A stretch of DNA of 64,000 nucleotides from the NCBI RefSeq assembly GCF_003334385.1, contig NZ_QOWN01000018.1; one strand, 5' to 3'. Both the position numbers and the translations under genes were made by a program. Shown here piece by piece: positions 7,371 to 64,000 of this stretch (the stretch's first letter is position 1; every line of letters begins with the position of its first letter). A model generated the notes under the pieces. It saw only the letters and a program-made list of their open reading frames with translations. It made no database searches and was not told the origin of the DNA. Origin of the DNA: Escherichia coli. GTDB lineage: Bacteria > Pseudomonadota > Gammaproteobacteria > Enterobacterales > Enterobacteriaceae.

Positions 7371-8030
7371 TTACAGGTTTATAAGAATATTCCCATCTGC
7401 ATCAACAACGCCGCTGACTACCTGTCCCGATACCATGCGCACCCGCGCATTCTGTGCGACGGCTGCATTGTTCAGCGCCTGACCTTCTGCGTTGGCGCTA
7501 AACCCATCACCGCTGGCGATCACATTGACGCGTTGTCCCGCTTTTACCCGCCATGCCTGGCGAAACTGGGTTAACTGGATAGGTTGATCGGGTGATAGAT
7601 CGCGCAGGCTAATGGCATCAACAAGTTGATTGATATCCAGCACCGTACGCGGTGGCAGGGTATCCAGCCGTCCGCGTTTCAGTTTGACATTGCCAGCTTC
7701 CAGCTTTCCTCCCCGCGCAATGGGCATCGCGGCAACCACATAATTTCCTGTGGCCTGTACATTAACCTGTAAATATCGTTTGTCGTTACCGCAGCGTGCC
7801 AACACATTCACATTGCCCCACAGGCGGGAATTATTGCTCATCGAAAGCAATGGCTGCTCGCATGGCGGTAGTAGATTGGGCGCTGTACGAATAGAAACAC
7901 GAACCTCATCACTTACCCCCGCGAGTTGGGCGCTAAAAAAGTTGTGCAATTGCGATGTGAGATTGCTCGCCGTACTTAACGGACTGAACAGTATCGCGAT
8001 GATCGCCACGCTACGTTTTATTATCAGCAT
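7371..8030 (-). CDS. flgA: flagellar P-ring assembly chaperone FlgA
   Basis: 219 aa ORF with N-terminal signal peptide, divergent from flgB. Confidence 0.93.
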   Translation of the reverse strand: MLIIKRSVAIIAILFSPLSTASNLTSQLHNFFSAQLAGVSDEVRVSIRTAPNLLPPCEQPLLSMSNNSRLWGNVNVLARCGNDKRYLQVNVQATGNYVVAAMPIARGGKLEAGNVKLKRGRLDTLPPRTVLDINQLVDAISLRDLSPDQPIQLTQFRQAWRVKAGQRVNVIASGDGFSANAEGQALNNAAVAQNARVRMVSGQVVSGVVDADGNILINL

Positions 8031-12730: not shown

Positions 12731-13429
12731 ATGCAAAAAAACGCTGCGCATACTTATGCCATTTCCAGCTTGTTGGTGCTTTCACTAACCGGCTGCGCCT
12801 GGATACCCTCCACGCCGCTGGTGCAGGGGGCGACCAGTGCACAACCGGTTCCCGGTCCGACGCCCGTCGCCAACGGTTCTATTTTCCAGTCTGCTCAGCC
12901 GATTAACTATGGCTATCAACCGCTGTTTGAAGATCGTCGACCACGCAATATTGGCGATACGCTGACCATCGTGTTGCAGGAGAACGTCAGCGCCAGCAAA
13001 AGCTCCTCTGCGAATGCCAGCCGTGACGGTAAAACTAATTTTGGCTTTGATACTGTGCCGCGCTATTTGCAGGGGCTGTTTGGTAACGCTCGTGCCGATG
13101 TCGAAGCCTCCGGTGGTAACACGTTCAACGGAAAGGGCGGGGCCAATGCCAGCAATACCTTTAGCGGCACGTTGACGGTGACGGTTGACCAGGTACTGGT
13201 CAACGGCAACCTGCATGTGGTGGGTGAAAAACAGATTGCCATTAATCAGGGTACCGAATTTATTCGCTTCTCTGGCGTGGTTAATCCACGCACTATCAGC
13301 GGCAGCAATACCGTACCGTCTACTCAGGTGGCGGATGCGCGCATTGAATACGTAGGCAATGGCTACATTAACGAAGCGCAAAATATGGGCTGGTTGCAGC
13401 GTTTCTTCCTTAACCTGTCGCCAATGTAA
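12731..13429 (+). CDS. flgH: flagellar L-ring lipoprotein FlgH
   Basis: ORF 12716-13429; start at ATG 12731 ([22 protein letters not shown] lipobox), 232 aa. Confidence 0.93.
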
Positions 13430-13440
13430 GTGAGGCTGTG

Positions 13441-14538
13441 GTGATTAAATTTCTCTCTGCATTAATTCTTCTACTGGTCACGACGGCGGCTCAGGCTGAG
13501 CGTATTCGCGATCTCACCAGTGTTCAGGGGGTAAGGCAAAACTCACTGATTGGCTATGGTCTGGTGGTGGGGCTGGATGGCACCGGTGACCAGACAACCC
13601 AGACGCCGTTTACCACACAAACGCTTAATAACATGCTCTCACAGCTGGGAATTACCGTTCCGACGGGCACCAATATGCAGCTAAAAAACGTCGCTGCGGT
13701 AATGGTGACAGCGTCACTTCCTCCGTTTGGACGTCAGGGGCAAACCATCGATGTGGTGGTTTCTTCCATGGGAAATGCCAAAAGCTTGCGTGGAGGTACG
13801 TTGTTGATGACACCGCTTAAGGGCGTTGACAGTCAGGTGTATGCGCTGGCGCAGGGCAATATTCTGGTTGGCGGCGCAGGAGCCTCCGCTGGCGGTAGCA
13901 GTGTTCAGGTTAACCAACTGAACGGTGGACGGATCACCAATGGTGCGGTTATTGAACGTGAATTGCCCAGCCAGTTTGGCGTCGGGAATACCCTTAATTT
14001 GCAACTTAACGACGAAGATTTCAGCATGGCGCAGCAAATCGCTGACACCATCAACCGCGTGCGTGGATATGGCAGCGCCACCGCGTTAGATGCGCGGACT
14101 ATTCAGGTGCGCGTACCGAGTGGCAACAGTTCCCAGGTCCGCTTCCTTGCCGATATTCAGAATATGCAGGTTAATGTCACCCCGCAGGACGCTAAAGTAG
14201 TGATTAACTCGCGCACCGGTTCGGTGGTGATGAATCGCGAAGTGACCCTCGACAGCTGCGCGGTAGCGCAGGGGAATCTCTCAGTAACAGTTAATCGTCA
14301 GGCCAATGTCAGCCAGCCAGATACACCGTTTGGTGGTGGACAGACTGTGGTTACTCCACAAACGCAGATCGATTTACGCCAGAGCGGCGGTTCGCTGCAA
14401 AGCGTACGTTCCAGCGCCAGCCTCAATAACGTGGTGCGCGCGCTCAATGCGCTGGGCGCTACGCCGATGGATCTGATGTCCATACTGCAATCAATGCAAA
14501 GTGCGGGATGTCTGCGGGCAAAACTGGAAATCATCTGA
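13441..14538 (+). CDS. flgI: flagellar P-ring protein FlgI
   Basis: ORF from 13438; GTG start at 13441 gives 365 aa with signal peptide; stop overlaps flgJ start. Confidence 0.93.
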
Positions 14539-21534: not shown

Positions 21535-21895
21535 CGTAACTTACTCATTATTCTTACATTGACGACTAAGCTGCGGGCAAAGTAACGCCTTTCCGGGTGT
21601 GAACCGATGGCCTCGTGTCTAGTCGCGTCGCCAACCTCACGGTTATCGTCAGCTCAAAGAGGCGCAGAGTGTCGGTTGCCCGTTTTTCATGCGGAAAAAC
21701 AGCGCAATTATCAAAGAAACAGACTGGGTATTACTCTCCAGAAATATTTCCATCTACCGGTAAGGACTGCAACCCGCAGCCCGCTAACTGCCTGAAAGAT
21801 CAATACGTCTTACGCCATTGCTGCGTGGATGATCGGTCGGGCAAAATGGGTTATTCCGTAAAATTTCTTGTTTTAACAAGGATGGACACGGAAAC
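21535..21895 (-). promoter_or_regulatory. rne long 5' UTR / autoregulatory leader (approximate)
   Basis: 572 bp non-coding gap upstream of rne start codon; K-12 rne is known to have a ~361 nt structured leader mediating RNase E autoregulation. Confidence 0.5.
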
Positions 21896-23177: not shown

Positions 23178-23762
23178 CTATCCCATCAGCGGGTTTTTCC
23201 CTTCCCGACGTAACATCTGACACAGCGCGATTAGCGGTAAACCAACCAGCGTGTTAGGATCACGCCCCTCTAAACGCTCAAACAGCGTAATGCCAAATCC
23301 TTCACTCTTAAAGCTACCCGCGCAGTGCAGGGGATGCTCTTTACGCACGTAATTATCAATCTCCGCCTCGCTCAGGTGACGGAAATGGACGTCAAAAGGC
23401 TCCACTTCTGTTTGCAGATGCCCATTCGCCGAATTAAACAACGCCAGTCCAGTATAGAAGGTGACGATATTGCCGCTGGCTTTGCGTAATTGCAGACGGG
23501 CATTTTCTTCCGTTAACGGTTTACCGGTGATTTCGCCATCAAGAACACATACCTGGTCTGAACCAATAATTAAATGATCCGGATAACGTGACGCCAGAGA
23601 TTGCGCTTTTTCTTGTGCCAGTCGAAGCACCAACTGTCGCGGTGATTCGTCGCTGCGTGGGGTTTCGTCGACCTCTGGTGCTGCACATTCAAAAGAGATT
23701 TGCAGTTTTTCCAGAAGAGCGCGACGCCATGGCGAGGTGGAGGCTAAAATAAGTTTAGGCAT
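23178..23762 (-). CDS. yceF: Maf-like nucleotide pyrophosphatase YceF
   Basis: ORF 23178-23801; start at [20 protein letters not shown] (194 aa). Confidence 0.9.
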
Positions 23763-23769
23763 ATTTTTT

Positions 23770-23930
23770 TCCATCAGATATAGCGTATTGATGATAGCCA
23801 TTTTAAACTATGCGCTTCGTTTTGCAGGTTGATGTTTGTTATCAGCACTGAACGAAAATAAAGCAGTAACCCGCAATGTGTGCGAATTATTGGCAAAAGG
23901 CAACCACAGGCTGCCTTTTTCTTTGACTCT
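23770..23930 (+). ncRNA. sraB: probable SraB small RNA (yceF-yceD intergenic), approximate bounds
   Basis: Established knowledge places SraB in the yceF/yceD intergenic region in K-12; here a 7-bp stem (aaaggca...tgccttt, ~23897-23919) followed by tttttcttt provides a plus-strand intrinsic terminator; 5' end not determinable from sequence. Confidence 0.35.
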
Positions 23931-60787: not shown

Positions 60788-60810
60788 TCGAGTTCCACCT
60801 TCTTATTCAT
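60784..60810 (-). pseudogene. potB: potB 3'-terminal remnant (last ~8 codons, ...MNKKVELE-stop overlapping potC ATG); rest of potB replaced by prophage DNA
   Basis: Minus-strand frame upstream of potC reads MNKKVELE then TGA overlapping potC ATG (cgaATGAtc); further upstream the same frame is non-PotB-like and hits a stop at 60904-60906. PotB C-terminus recalled from memory as ...NKKVELE. Confidence 0.5.
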
Positions 60811-60953
60811 AAGGTGGAGCACTTTCAGGATTTTGAATTTATTCAATTTTTTCCTTTCTCCAAAATCTCTCCAAAACTTTTCCCCAAAACAAGGCCACGC
60901 ATTTTACAACACTTTTTTCCTGAGATGGTGACGGATATTCCATATGGTGTTTG
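60788..60953. other. probable attL region (prophage/chromosome junction) containing potB tail, potC RBS and A-tract repeats
   Basis: Interval between int stop codon and potC start; potB identity is lost upstream of ~60810; the core cannot be delimited without attR. Confidence 0.45.
60855..60892. repeat. three phased tccaaaa / ccccaaaa A-tract repeats (~11-13 bp spacing) in the attL arm
   Basis: ctccaaaatctctccaaaacttttccccaaaac; helical-repeat spacing typical of intrinsically bent DNA or arm-type/IHF sites in lambdoid att arms. Confidence 0.4.
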
Positions 60954-62072
60954 TCAAATAACCAACTTAACCCATTCCTGACCTCGAGTATCGTTATAGC
61001 GATCGGTGGTAGCCTGGACTTTATGTCCCAGTAATGTTTTTGTATCGACACCCTGTGCGCGGTACAACCGTTCTGACAGGGAGCGTTGTTCATGAAATGT
61101 TGGCGGTGTTTTTCCTGCTGGTGGAATTATTCCAGCCAGATCTCGCGCTTTGGCGAAGTAATCGCTCAGGTTGTCTTTACTCATCGGTTTTGGTTGTTTC
61201 TGGTGCCTACTATGGATTAGGTATGGACTCAACATTCTGTCCCTGCATCCATCAATAACTTCTTTTAACGATACCCCAATTTCATCGCATCGTAGCGTAA
61301 GAGGTAAGGCCAGACGCATTCCGGTTTTTCCTTGGGTTATATGTAGATGTCCATTCCATACATCTGAAAAACGCATGTGGCAAATGTCATCACGGCGCTG
61401 ACCAGTAACAATCGCAAGAAGCATTGCGTTACGGATAAAGTGTTTTTCTGGCGTTGCATTATAAATTTTTTGCCAGTCTTCCAGGGTGAGTCTGGATCTG
61501 GTCACTTTAGGGATCGGTTTACGGGTAGCCTCCAGAGGATTCCATCCAGGAGGAACTTCTCCCGCATGCTGTGCTTCTTTATAAATATCAACCCATAATC
61601 CGCGATTTACTCTTGCTGTGCTGACCATGTCTTTATCCATCCACTCGTCCAGTATTAATGCAAAGTCTCTTACCTCCAGTTCTTTCAATGGGTGGTTTCC
61701 CAGGCGGGAAACCAGGTATGCAGCCATTCGCACTTTTTCTTTGTGGGTTGTAGCTGCAATGTCTCCATTTTTCAGTCGCGAATCCTGTATTTTCAGATAT
61801 CGATCAACCCATGCCTTTAATCTGATACCCCGACGTTTTGTTGCTGATGGACTTTCATCAATTTTGCGCATGAAATATTCTGCTTCTGCTGCAGCTATTC
61901 GCTGATTGGCTGTTGCAGCGATTTTTTCTGCCTTGACTTTGTCTGTCCCAAGTCCGTGAAATTTTCCAGTCACAGGATTTTTATACTGGTAGTAAACCTT
62001 GCCAGTTCTGCGATCAAACTTTTCGTAAAGAGCTGCTACGTCAGTACTGTTTTTTCGTGGCCTCGGTGACAT
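60954..62072 (-). CDS. int: lambda-family tyrosine integrase
   Basis: 372 aa ORF; C-terminus ...FHEQRSLSERLYRAQGVDTKTLLGHKVQATTDRYNDTRGQEWVKLVI closely parallels lambda Int catalytic tail (H-x-x-R, catalytic Tyr); N-terminal arm-binding-like domain. Confidence 0.9.
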   Translation of the reverse strand: MSPRPRKNSTDVAALYEKFDRRTGKVYYQYKNPVTGKFHGLGTDKVKAEKIAATANQRIAAAEAEYFMRKIDESPSATKRRGIRLKAWVDRYLKIQDSRLKNGDIAATTHKEKVRMAAYLVSRLGNHPLKELEVRDFALILDEWMDKDMVSTARVNRGLWVDIYKEAQHAGEVPPGWNPLEATRKPIPKVTRSRLTLEDWQKIYNATPEKHFIRNAMLLAIVTGQRRDDICHMRFSDVWNGHLHITQGKTGMRLALPLTLRCDEIGVSLKEVIDGCRDRMLSPYLIHSRHQKQPKPMSKDNLSDYFAKARDLAGIIPPAGKTPPTFHEQRSLSERLYRAQGVDTKTLLGHKVQATTDRYNDTRGQEWVKLVI

Positions 62073-62310
62073 GGGTTAAAATCTCCTTCAGTGCGTCATC
62101 ATCGCCAGTATGAATTTCCGGCGCAATTCCAGCTTCACCCGGTCCAACAAAGACTGCGCGGCGATCTATTAGCCAGCGACCACGAATTTTTTGTGGTCTT
62201 GGTACGATGTATCCAAGTTTTCCGTATTTCACCAGGGTAGTGTTTGTTATTGGGAGACTGAACCGCTTAGGTTTCCACTCGTCGAGCGTAATCAGGTACT
62301 GTTCGCTCAT
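62041..62310 (-). CDS. xis: excisionase (Xis-like winged-helix DNA-binding protein)
   Basis: 89 aa from ATG at 62310 (MSEQYLITLDEWKPKRF..., compare lambda Xis MYLTLQEWNARQ); directly upstream of and overlapping int by ~30 nt, as in lambda. Confidence 0.7.
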   Translation of the reverse strand: MSEQYLITLDEWKPKRFSLPITNTTLVKYGKLGYIVPRPQKIRGRWLIDRRAVFVGPGEAGIAPEIHTGDDDALKEILTHVTEATKKQY

Positions 62311-62371: not shown

Positions 62372-64000
62372 TTAAAAATCAGCCTGATTCGGGAACAGTT
62401 TTTGCCAGATAGCTGAAACGTATTTTGCCTGGTAACGCGCATCGTGCAGGGCATTATGGCGTTCACCCTCAAATGTGATGACACTTCGAGCATCGAAATC
62501 CATCACCAGCCCCAGGGCAACAATCGTTCTTACATCACGATCATTGGTGTAACGCCACGGGCAGGGGATCTCCTGCCGTTCATATGAACGGCGTAAAATC
62601 ACGTTGTCGAAGTTGGCTCCATTTCCCCAGACCTGAACAAAAAATTCACCGGAGTTTTCGTCGATAAATTCCCGTAATTGCAACAGTGCGTCATCCAACG
62701 GGATTTCATCGGTCAGAATGGCTGATTGTGCTTCCCGTGACTGTTTCAGCCACCACTTAATGGTGTCCCGATCGATGACTCCGCCTGCGGTTTCCAGATC
62801 GATAGTTTTGCTGAATTCTGGCCCCATCTCTCCGGTTGCCGGATCAAAAAACTTACCGGCCAGAGAGTTTATTGGCGCATCAGGATTTTTGCCCATTGTT
62901 TCAAGGTCAATCATCAGATGGTGCCACAACCTGCTGGTGGATGTGATAATGTGATGACCGTTCACCGTAATTAAGGGATCTGCCGTCTCGCCAGTTTCAC
63001 TATCGCTGGCGTGATCCTGAGCGCTGCCAGCATTCTCCTTGTGTGGATGTTCAGCGCCTTCCATTTCCTTCGGATCATTTTCCTGAACTTCAACCTGATT
63101 CTCTTCATCGAATGTTTCTTGGTATGTTGCGTCGCCCATCACCGCGCCACAATCAGGGCAGTTGCCGCCGCCGGTCTGACCGCAGGCGGTGCAGATCTTT
63201 TCCGGTTCCTGTTGCACTACTGGTTCAGGTTGTTTCGTTTCTGGCTCGTTTTGTAACGCATTTGGACTGTTTTGTTCCGCTTTCTGGTCGTTCTGTTCCG
63301 ATTCTTGCTGGTTCTGGTTTACAGAATCGCGGGTTTCAATCCCCTTTACCCATTTCGGATCATTCGGGTCGCTAATCCCTGCAACAAATTCTCCGCGAGA
63401 GGCAGCAAGCAACTTATCGGCGTCAGGCTGGCTGATATTGGCTGCCTGCATAATTTTGTTTACTTCGTCAGCGGTAACTTTTACCGGCTCTGGTTGTGCG
63501 GTCGTGTCAGATGCACCAGTATTTTGTTGTGAACCTGAGTACGTGCCGTTTTTACGTGCGAAGTATTCCTCTTTTGTGATTTCCGTAGCTCCCAAGGCTA
63601 GTGCTTTTTCCAGACCAGAAAGTTTGTTTGCGCGACCGTATTTTTCGCCATCCTTGTCGGTGAAGAGGAAGTAGAACGGCCCCTCACGCTCTACAGATGG
63701 TTCAACTTCCACTTTGCATTCGGTTTTTTCGTTGCCCGGAATTGCCGTTTCCACTGCATCAGTTTCTGGTACTGGCGACGAGAGAGTATCAGTTGCGCTC
63801 TGATTTCTTCCTTCATCTTCAAACACGCCCTTTGTAGTCAGGTATTCAGTAATGTATTTGTTCAGTGCCACAGGGTCTTTGTGAATGTCGATCGGACGTT
63901 CACGGACAAGGCCAAAAATAGTCTGGCGGTCGTAGCGAAGGGCATCAGGCTGTTTGCGCATTGATGCCGAGATACGCTTCCAGTCTTCGCGGTCGTTGTC
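62372..64000 (-). CDS. phage modular protein with C-terminal DEDDh (DnaQ-like) 3'-5' exonuclease domain; N-terminal part runs off window (frame open to 64000)
   Basis: Continuous minus-strand frame with no stop to the window edge; exo motifs I (LMIDLETMG), II (WGNGANFDNV), III (HNALHDARYQA); C-x2-C-x7-C-x2-C zinc ribbon (ICTACGQTGGGNCPDCG); acidic/Gln-rich low-complexity linker. Confidence 0.75.
   Translation of the reverse strand, partial: DNDREDWKRISASMRKQPDALRYDRQTIFGLVRERPIDIHKDPVALNKYITEYLTTKGVFEDEGRNQSATDTLSSPVPETDAVETAIPGNEKTECKVEVEPSVEREGPFYFLFTDKDGEKYGRANKLSGLEKALALGATEITKEEYFARKNGTYSGSQQNTGASDTTAQPEPVKVTADEVNKIMQAANISQPDADKLLAASRGEFVAGISDPNDPKWVKGIETRDSVNQNQQESEQNDQKAEQNSPNALQNEPETKQPEPVVQQEPEKICTACGQTGGGNCPDCGAVMGDATYQETFDEENQVEVQENDPKEMEGAEHPHKENAGSAQDHASDSETGETADPLITVNGHHIITSTSRLWHHLMIDLETMGKNPDAPINSLAGKFFDPATGEMGPEFSKTIDLETAGGVIDRDTIKWWLKQSREAQSAILTDEIPLDDALLQLREFIDENSGEFFVQVWGNGANFDNVILRRSYERQEIPCPWRYTNDRDVRTIVALGLVMDFDARSVITFEGERHNALHDARYQAKYVSAIWQKLFPNQADF

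Follow-up and report, generated by a model that had tools for sequence, protein, structure and literature searches.

A RecE-type scaffold with a predicted DEDDh exonuclease head in a lambdoid prophage of Escherichia coli

Introduction

RecE and RecT are a workhorse of recombineering, and in linear-by-linear recombination full-length RecE outperforms its nuclease domain. The N-terminal region of RecE, which is more than 550 residues long, has been described as 'of unknown function' (PMC11611040). The window analysed here, a 64,000-nucleotide stretch of Escherichia coli DNA, ends inside a prophage gene in which a region of this kind appears to be joined to a nuclease of another class. Indeed, the initial annotation proposed a layout resembling that of RecE but with a DEDDh exonuclease domain (3'-5') instead of the PD-(D/E)XK domain of RecE (5'-3'; PF06630 or PF12684). 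What is this protein, how is it related to RecE, and what might it do for the phage that carries it?

Results

The gene and its neighbours

The reading frame occupies positions 62372-64000 on the minus strand and comprises 542 sense codons and a stop, with no closure before the window edge, in keeping with the open frame of at least 540 residues that had been claimed beside xis. The first in-frame ATG of this fragment is found at 63961. Downstream, xis (excisionase; 62041-62310, minus strand) starts 61 nt away and is followed by int (tyrosine integrase; 60954-62072, minus strand), both assigned from the list of open reading frames and the annotation of equivalent loci, and the prophage end abuts potC. 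In relatives the gene order is dicB-ydfD-exo-xis-int, and the proteins are intact, 812-830 amino acids long and 91-94% identical. The window protein is 91% identical to residues 282-823 of the 823-amino-acid product of locus L001, and its head is 99.3% identical in DNA to that of locus L007, whose intact product has 812 amino acids. Since the N-terminus lies beyond the window and exact 44-mer scans of genome and metagenome contig collections gave no match to the window allele, the full length was deduced from such relatives, L007 included; the N-terminal ~ 280 residues of the window copy fall outside the window and an interruption there is conceivable. Taken together, the window encodes all but the N-terminal third of an early-left-operon protein, and the lambdoid prophage to which it belongs is integrated beside potC.

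A DEDDh exonuclease head

The head of the protein (62405-62923, minus strand) carries, in order, the three motifs of the DEDDh superfamily (D-x-E, D and H-x4-D), each of them where the initial annotation had placed it in the C-terminal part: Exo motif I, LMIDLETMG, with the catalytic D and E (62891-62917), Exo motif II, WGNGANFDNV, with the catalytic D (62600-62629), and Exo motif III, HNALHDARYQA, with the catalytic H-x4-D that includes the 'h' of DEDDh (62426-62458), all on the minus strand. Their catalytic columns are invariant in five aligned homologues, while a set of 70 unique relatives has the catalytic residues of motifs II and III without exception and the motif I pattern in 62 members. 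Furthermore, fragment residues 360-532 align with the complete model (1-177 of 177) of Pfam family PF16473 (Rv2179c-like) at an E-value of 1.9e-60, and the corresponding match in the full-length relative reaches 2.3e-64. Given this match and the motifs in place, both a chance match and a frameshift that would have undone the motifs are excluded, all three being in frame. An unusual patch of the head, INSLAGKFF in its second strand, was also considered as a compensated frameshift or sequencing error; this reading was dropped given that the patch is in frame and the same allele is present in L007, and similar alleles recur in IMG/VR.

AF2 models the head (residues 360-535) as an RNase H-like alpha/beta fold with a pLDDT of 82-95. 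The top Foldseek match is T4 DexA (8KEN/8KEL; E = 4e-11, TM 0.64-0.74), further matches being RNase T, Orn (oligoribonuclease) and REXO2, over a range of E-values from 4e-11 to 1e-5, and phmmer of the head against PDB sequences returned DexA only (E = 4e-7). DexA is the solved structure closest to the head by sequence and by fold, at an identity of only 22-25%. Rv2179c from Mycobacterium tuberculosis, the single-domain cellular protein after which the fully matched Pfam profile is named, gave no phmmer match at E <= 1 against PDB sequences and is hence a distant relative.

Stand-alone exonucleases of the same Pfam family from phages and prophages, namely mEp460 gp26, Salmonella phage g341c gp29 and Bas106_0031, are 51-60% identical over the whole head with conserved motifs; they lack the scaffold, and their sequence opens directly with strand one of the fold (MNNLMIDLET...). 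The mEp460 gene is found in the same slot as the window gene, directly upstream of xis. In P22-like phages stand-alone homologues lie between erf-ssb and abc2, and elsewhere they adjoin xis or int, or a DNA polymerase and a Cas4 exonuclease. These neighbourhoods tie the head to recombination modules.

Kinship of the scaffold with RecE

The sole NCBIfam match of the protein is the RecE equivalog NF007259, and it involves non-catalytic profile positions only, with scores of 273 bits (positions 309-603) and 264 bits, both within positions 261-603 of 877 and below the cut-off of 1269. BLASTP against K-12 RecE aligned residues 262-625, in the numbering of the full-length relative and not of the window fragment, with RecE 278-591 at an E-value of 1e-57, the zinc ribbon included. 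The PD-(D/E)XK Pfam families PF06630 and PF12684 were found neither in the fragment nor in the full-length relative. With a score under the cut-off, no PD-(D/E)XK domain and no recT neighbour in the relatives, the protein is not a RecE equivalog. Thus, the proposed RecE-like layout with DEDDh in place of PD-(D/E)XK holds, and the reading of the gene as a routine RecE orthologue falls away. Matches to the scaffold in AFDB50 are exclusively Enterobacterales proteins named 'Exonuclease' or 'Exodeoxyribonuclease VIII', and near-identical proteins carry the precomputed Pfam domains YdfE_N (PF27430) and YdfE_C (PF27432), the YdfE_N part lying outside the window. A homology of YdfE_N with the N-terminus of Rac RecE was rejected at an hhalign probability of 0.05%, obtained with shallow profiles.

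From its N-terminal side, the fragment begins with the last part of a folded helical domain (63827-64000, minus strand; ~ 247-340 of the full length), delineated by AF2, by BLASTP to RecE and by the NCBIfam RecE profile; AF2 on 20 diverse sequences gave a pLDDT above 90 for residues 247-340. A small unit of beta-hairpin and helix follows (EREGPFYFLF...EEYFARKNG; 63545-63691, minus strand), with strands at 109-124, helices at 127-150 and a pLDDT of 58-70. Nothing in K-12 RecE corresponds to it convincingly, BLASTP being gapped or unmatched there. The conserved helical segment ending in GISDPNDPKWVKGI (63338-63484, minus strand) is common to RecE and near-identical in the K-12 protein. Conservation is also seen for GISDPNDPKWVKG, present in 66 of the 70 unique relatives, and for a G.SDP.D motif, present in 20 of 42 diverse scaffold representatives.

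The next three segments, all on the minus strand, lead to the head. A low-complexity segment rich in Q, N, E and P (63194-63337), recognised by composition and by a pLDDT below 50, precedes the C-x2-C-x7-C-x2-C motif, whose zinc-ribbon-like sequence CTACGQTGGGNCPDC lies exactly at 63149-63193 and which together with its conserved tail GAVMGDATYQETF covers 63110-63193. The four cysteines are kept in 68 of 70 unique relatives and the motif is also present in K-12 RecE, while it occurs in only 5 of 42 diverse family representatives. Its assignment as a zinc ribbon is putative, with a weak match to Pfam DZR (E = 0.27) and low AF2 confidence. The acidic linker (62969-63109) then runs up to the end of DNA homology with RecE at ...ETGETADPLI; taken as a whole, from fragment residue 221 to 358, the linker region counts 29 D/E versus 7 K/R, with 26 Q/N, and its pLDDT is below 50. 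The zinc-ribbon motif, at the coordinates given, and the low-complexity linker of the initial annotation are therefore present, but they do not set this protein apart, as both are already in RecE and, judged by sequence, were inherited from it.

The heads borne by the 42 diverse scaffold representatives are Exonuc_VIII in 21, DUF3799 in 12 and Rv2179c-like in 5. Conversely, the DEDDh head is found on at least four to five different N-terminal types, and in some alleles with this head the kinship extends to the N-terminus of RecE (56-58% identity over RecE 42-591). At the level of sequence, the protein belongs to the RecE/ExoVIII scaffold family as one of its modular forms, sharing with Rac RecE the central scaffold with its conserved helical segment, zinc-ribbon-like motif and acidic tail. 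It would consist of a folded N-terminal part made of YdfE_N and YdfE_C and a mostly disordered region with one short conserved segment, after which the zinc-ribbon-like motif, the acidic tail and finally the head would follow. We consider this architecture, together with the predicted 3'-5' exonuclease chemistry, very probable.

Exchange of the head and absence of an annealase

DNA homology to the RecE-type locus L006 and to K-12 recE stops at nt 1031 of the fragment (window position ~ 62970); in the L001 gene the same junction falls at nt 1874, and beyond it comes the DEDDh head. With either head, DEDDh or PD-(D/E)XK, the scaffold is 88-95% identical over a query of 629 amino acids, as in a pair of siblings of 823 and 900 amino acids. 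The operon slot is also that of RecE, between the kil/dicB region and xis-int, and dicB and ydfD are present in 77 of 80 IMG/VR loci. In contrast, what lies downstream differs. RecE-type loci have recT, lar/ralR and rcbA there: L006, the sole PD-(D/E)XK-headed locus examined closely, shows recT-lar-DUF1187, and the sampled genome matches to the RecE head are annotated as recE with recT. These genes are absent after the DEDDh-headed gene, which in L001, L003, L005 and L007 has xis directly downstream.

The search for a RecT/Bet-like partner covered relatives, as the upstream side of the window copy lies beyond the window edge. No such partner was found in any of 84 loci with the DEDDh head, be it a homologue of RecT or Erf by tblastn (0 of 80 IMG/VR loci) or an annealase by annotation (L001, L003, L005 and L007). 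A recombination junction in the acidic tail has very probably replaced the PD-(D/E)XK 5'-3' nuclease of RecE by a DexA/Rv2179c-like DEDDh domain, and the same exchange would have removed the downstream recT-lar-rcbA genes.

Abundance, selection and previous cataloguing

Among 5426 complete E. coli genomes, 4042 (74%) have a match to the DEDDh head and 1736 to the RecE head, which makes the former the commoner of the two in E. coli. With such a frequency, the gene does not deserve to be called the least 'core' coding element of the window. Intact open reading frames are seen in 76 of 80 IMG/VR copies, and the dN/dS ratio is 0.10-0.13 for the head, 0.11-0.16 for the N-terminus and 0.12-0.26 for the middle, where one pair gives 0.41. 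Purifying selection acts on every module.

The family is catalogued as PHROG 2082, under Pfam YdfE_N and YdfE_C, and in PGAP, while no functional study of the family or the fusion, biochemical or genetic, was found in the searchable literature. The view of the gene as not well described thus applies to its function and not to its existence. K-12 has the family only as a decayed remnant, the ydfE pseudogene, which is probably why the gene escaped study. The 'exodeoxyribonuclease VIII' labels given to DEDDh-headed genes are misleading.

Discussion

The best explanation overall, to which we assign a probability of roughly 0.55, is a RecE-type scaffold with a swapped DEDDh head, that is, a tethered 3'-5' exonuclease with an early lytic role. 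The head would use two-metal-ion hydrolysis to strip nucleotides from free 3'-OH ends and, by analogy with T4 DexA, its substrate is probably DNA rather than RNA. On its flexible tether, the head would be held by the scaffold, which may localise it or bind partners just as in RecE. Production would occur from the early-left (pL-type) transcript after induction and not in the lysogen; a crude consensus scan of the coding strand from dicB to xis in L001 returned no promoter-like site. Given that a 3'-5' exonuclease would destroy the 3' tails on which annealases and RecA act, and that there is no annealase gene, the classical mechanism of exonuclease plus annealase is ruled out. As for the role itself, we tentatively suggest that in the lytic phase the protein processes the 3' ends of DNA, be it linear or replicating, independently of RecT and in connection with recombination or replication, the label 'recombination-linked' being drawn solely from gene neighbourhood.

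A wider and more speculative idea, which we hold with little conviction, is that the RecE-type scaffold could be a general delivery module bringing interchangeable nuclease heads to one cellular target, for instance a DNA end, a replication fork or a host protein complex. The DEDDh form would then do an undescribed, RecT-independent job. By removing 3' tails it might control what happens at the ends of phage DNA, be it SOS signalling or host recombination; alternatively, it might destroy 3'-ended nucleic acids that defence systems use.

Exclusion genes are frequent in prophages, and those of E. coli very commonly carry the present gene. It could be proposed that the head degrades incoming modified-cytosine phage DNA ('HREX') or other foreign 3' ends and protects the lysogen, which we find unlikely. 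EcD, the one DexA homologue from E. coli to have been tested, behaved as an anti-T4 nuclease: in vitro it cut 5hmC-DNA and left unmodified dsDNA uncut, and from a plasmid it protected against T4 (PMC12153337). In DexA, D169 is said to read 5hmC and W152 to be needed for activity on T4 DNA (PMC12153337). The window head keeps the catalytic DEDDh residues of DexA and, in one pairwise HMMER alignment, has D at the D169 equivalent, as expected for exclusion; in the same alignment the W152 equivalent is T in the window copy, and it is Y in 65 of 70 relatives, which argues against it. EcD (HAK9828821.1) itself is probably a different protein, judged by the termini MIDTET... and ...TIPETY, known here from its cloning primers alone, and a scan of IMG/VR with the primer 20-mers gave one chance match on an unrelated contig. 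Moreover, DexA and EcD stand alone at ~ 180-230 amino acids, whereas the window head tops a protein of ~ 820 amino acids, and exclusion leaves the retention of the RecE scaffold unexplained. The position of the gene inside a repressed early-left operon, with no promoter-like site in the L001 scan, also speaks against this reading, and PADLOC gave only a weak generic match to a CRISPR-associated DEDDh (E = 7e-4), which was not taken as evidence of defence.

More doubtful still is a 3'-5' exoribonuclease acting on RNA 3' ends, whether of phage or host transcripts, of small RNAs from the dicF/dicB region or of RNA-phage genomes. The Pfam family is named after Rv2179c and described as a 3'-5' exoribonuclease, and RNase T, oligoribonuclease and REXO2 are the next folds after DexA. 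Furthermore, TONDO proteins, likewise prophage-encoded DEDDh exonucleases with a variable auxiliary domain, block RNA phages by trimming 3' UTRs, according to a preprint (PMC13344964). This is an analogy only, as TONDO proteins were found as ISG20 homologues, have no RecE link and bear auxiliary domains described as without detectable homology, and the paper mentions neither Rv2179c nor DexA (PMC13344964). The closest solved relative of the head, in sequence and in fold, is nonetheless a DNA exonuclease, T4 DexA; the head took the place of a DNA exonuclease on a DNA-recombination scaffold, and its stand-alone homologues are found within DNA recombination or replication modules.

The established roles of T4 DexA include host-DNA scavenging, and homology in sequence and similarity in fold to DexA could suggest that the head turns DNA fragments into mononucleotides which feed phage replication. 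This is very improbable in our opinion: we know of no host-DNA breakdown by temperate lambdoid phages, no endonuclease partner gene was seen in the operons of L001, L003, L005 and L007, and a scaffold of ~ 630 amino acids under purifying selection would be left unexplained. Finally, the gene could have no function and simply hitch-hike in prophages, having arisen when a RecE-type phage underwent mosaic recombination with one that bore a stand-alone exonuclease next to xis. This would account for the clean junction inside the low-complexity linker, the mEp460 exonuclease in the same xis-proximal slot and the decayed K-12 copy, but is hardly credible given that 76 of the 80 copies are intact, that dN/dS is 0.10-0.26 in nearly all comparisons and all modules, that catalytic and Cys residues are conserved and that the head is present on several different scaffolds.

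What was known already is the catalogued prophage family; what is added here is the exchange of the RecE head for a DEDDh head on the same scaffold, the absence of an annealase and the abundance of the gene. In the preferred reading of a tethered 3'-5' exonuclease, the scaffold kept under purifying selection although its nuclease has the opposite polarity and an annealase is absent amounts to a natural experiment, and the role of the scaffold would be independent of 5'-3' resection and of RecT. If the head were to keep out modified-DNA phages, in the way reported for EcD, the family would be among the most widespread prophage-borne defences of E. coli. If, on the other hand, the scaffold is a delivery module, a comparison of the two heads found on it would reveal the job of the RecE N-terminal region.

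RecE scaffold and DEDDh head

The exonuclease gene occupies 62372-64000 on the minus strand, where translation gives one uninterrupted frame of 542 codons and a stop, its 5' part lying beyond the window edge. All elements listed in the initial annotation were found in place, namely Exo motifs I (LMIDLETMG, 62891-62917), II (WGNGANFDNV, 62600-62629) and III (HNALHDARYQA, 62426-62458), a C-x2-C-x7-C-x2-C motif (63149-63193), all on the minus strand, and the linker; the acidic Q/N/P-rich stretch around and beyond the Cys motif comprises 138 residues (29 D/E, 7 K/R, 26 Q/N). The proposed DEDDh exonuclease module was borne out, since fragment residues 360-532 match the whole Pfam Rv2179c-like model (E 1.9e-60). 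AF2 modelling of the fragment gives high confidence to this head alone (pLDDT 82-95), with values below 50 for residues 58-106, 154-203 and 217-355. A segment of ~ 49 residues, EREGPFYFLFTDKDGEKYGRANKLSGLEKALALGATEITKEEYFARKNG (63545-63691, minus strand), is modelled as a small hairpin-helix unit within the disordered region (residues 109-150, pLDDT 58-70), to which nothing in K-12 RecE clearly corresponds. Foldseek against the PDB places T4 DexA first (E 4e-11), followed by RNase T, oligoribonuclease and REXO2, all matches falling on the head, and DexA is the only match of phmmer against PDB sequences.

The rest of the protein supports the earlier reading of a RecE-like layout with DEDDh in place of PD-(D/E)XK. 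Indeed, residues 262-625 align by BLASTP to K-12 RecE 278-591 (E 1e-57), with near-identity across GISDPNDPKWVKGI, the Cys motif and GAVMGDATYQETF, and the sole NCBIfam match is the RecE equivalog, at non-catalytic profile positions 261-603 of 877 only and far under the family cut-off. Pfam names this scaffold YdfE_N and YdfE_C. DNA homology between DEDDh-headed and PD-(D/E)XK-headed genes, as well as with K-12 recE, ends before the head, at nucleotide 1874 of the gene for the 823-aa relative (window ~ 62970), within the acidic tail. Hence, the gene is a RecE scaffold and a DexA-like DEDDh head joined at a defined mosaic junction.

A search with the 629-aa scaffold gave 88-95% identity among the 120 proteins listed, the majority of them with the Rv2179c-like head (812-831 aa in complete proteins) and the smaller share with a PD-(D/E)XK DUF3799 head (886-1057 aa, mostly 900). 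One protein of 1057 aa (P0027) has the same scaffold, 93% identical, and a third type of head; its C-terminal region matches PF12684 but is much longer and unlike the 900-aa RecE-type head in sequence. Among 42 diverse long scaffold representatives the heads are Exonuc_VIII (21), DUF3799 (12) and Rv2179c-like (5). In their alignment (A3), one of the 42 has a Pfam RecT domain in the same polypeptide (E 2e-42), which may reflect either a fusion of scaffold and RecT or two genes called as one. With 243 of 1.84 billion clusters, the scaffold family is narrow, and according to AFDB annotations it is nearly restricted to Enterobacterales.

Downstream of the PD-(D/E)XK-headed sibling gene lie recT, lar and DUF1187, then xis, so that the swapped cassette is the PD-(D/E)XK head with recT, lar and rcbA against the DEDDh head. 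The N-termini are exchangeable as well: two DEDDh-headed loci (L005 and L007) and one representative (P0131) combine the DEDDh head with an N-terminus of the Rac RecE type, and homology between the two N-terminal types was not detectable.

Gene neighbourhood

The excisionase gene xis (62041-62310) lies 61 nt downstream of the exonuclease gene and is followed by the integrase gene int (60954-62072), which adjoins potC. The host flank beside the integrase (potC, potD, ymfA, ycfZ) matches E. coli chromosomes at 100% identity, and the operon genes ahead of potC, potB and potA, are absent from the window; thus the prophage apparently sits at the potB/potC boundary. The gap between potC and the integrase (60788-60953) presumably contains the attachment-site junction. 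Elsewhere in the window, Rfam recognises rne5, an element of the RNase E 5' UTR (21559-21895), and the small RNA SraB (23756-23924), both ordinary content of this chromosomal region.

Relative loci and two phage records share a constant order, from the repressor region to dicB, ydfD, exonuclease, xis and int. In IMG/VR, dicB and ydfD lie upstream of the exonuclease gene in 77 of 80 loci, and its ORF is intact (821-830 aa) in 76. The RecT/Bet-like partner considered earlier did not appear in relatives, as none of the 80 DEDDh-headed loci has a RecT or Erf homologue; in these loci the DEDDh-headed gene is without an annealase partner. No promoter-like site was found on the coding strand from dicB to xis in the locus of the 823-aa relative, which is weak evidence but consistent with co-transcription from the early-left promoter. 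In the same locus, a related potC prophage, a toxin-antitoxin pair of the higBA type lies between the repressor region and the early-left genes (positions 12813-13477 of that locus), outside the present window.

Abundance, selection and stand-alone relatives

Of 5426 complete E. coli genomes, 4042 contain matches to the DEDDh head, at 7970 places and with as many as 7 in one genome; the RecE head is matched in 1736 (1827 places). Pairwise comparisons give dN/dS values of 0.10-0.13 in the head, 0.12-0.26 in the middle region (one pair 0.41) and 0.11-0.16 in the N-terminus, and 70 unique relatives show almost no variation in the catalytic residues, the four Cys or the GISDPND segment. A functionless hybrid is thus unlikely; this is a real, very common prophage gene under selection. 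In the K-12 Qin prophage (L094, 6079-6999), where the order is dicF-dicB-ydfD-ydfE and then intQ, the annotated pseudogene ydfE, cut by IS2E, is an N-terminal remnant of the same family; hence K-12 has no intact copy.

Stand-alone proteins 51-60% identical to the head occur in several phage settings, and 736 phage records match it in total. The homologue is immediately upstream of xis in mEp460, adjoins int in a Vibrio phage, and in a Rhodobacter phage has a DNA polymerase and a Cas4 exonuclease as neighbours. In P22-like phages it lies between erf-ssb and abc2 (L008, 4028-4576; L009, 3998-4546), roughly where P22 itself carries abc1. If that position holds, DEDDh exonuclease against abc1 would be a further module exchange in the recombination cassette.

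Possible function

The protein is predicted to be a Mg2+-dependent 3'-5' exonuclease, most likely acting on DNA. It would be made early after induction, its flexible acidic linker would tether the head to the scaffold, and the scaffold may target it the way RecE is targeted. Given the 3'-5' polarity and the lack of an annealase, RecET- or Red-type working would be impossible, and RecT-independent processing of DNA 3' ends is the candidate role that we rank first.

Exclusion of modified-DNA phages ranks second. The 2025 paper that solved the T4 DexA structure reports that EcD, an E. coli DexA homologue, cuts 5hmC-DNA only and, when plasmid-borne, protects against T4, with no mention of prophages or RecE fusions (PMC12153337). 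However, the termini of EcD, as judged from its primers, differ from those of the head, and of the mapped 5hmC-reading residues of DexA, D169 is kept as D whereas W152 is T in the window copy and Y in most copies. RNA 3' trimming comes third: ISG20-like DEDDh proteins with auxiliary domains block RNA phages (2026 preprint, PMC13344964), a resemblance by analogy only. Nucleotide scavenging is the least favoured.

The initial annotation had seen in the gene the window's best candidate for something not well described. As a sequence family it is already catalogued (PHROG 2082; Pfam; PGAP '3'-5' exonuclease'), its DEDDh-headed members being often mislabelled 'exodeoxyribonuclease VIII'; no study of a RecE-scaffold/DEDDh fusion was found in the literature searched. 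In biological terms, the fusion is a previously undescribed variation on RecE. According to a 2023 review, the RecE N-terminal domain has no known function, and linear-linear recombination works better with full-length RecE (PMC11611040). The fusion is of value mainly as a handle on this unexplained N-terminal region and as a predicted prophage nuclease that is very widespread.
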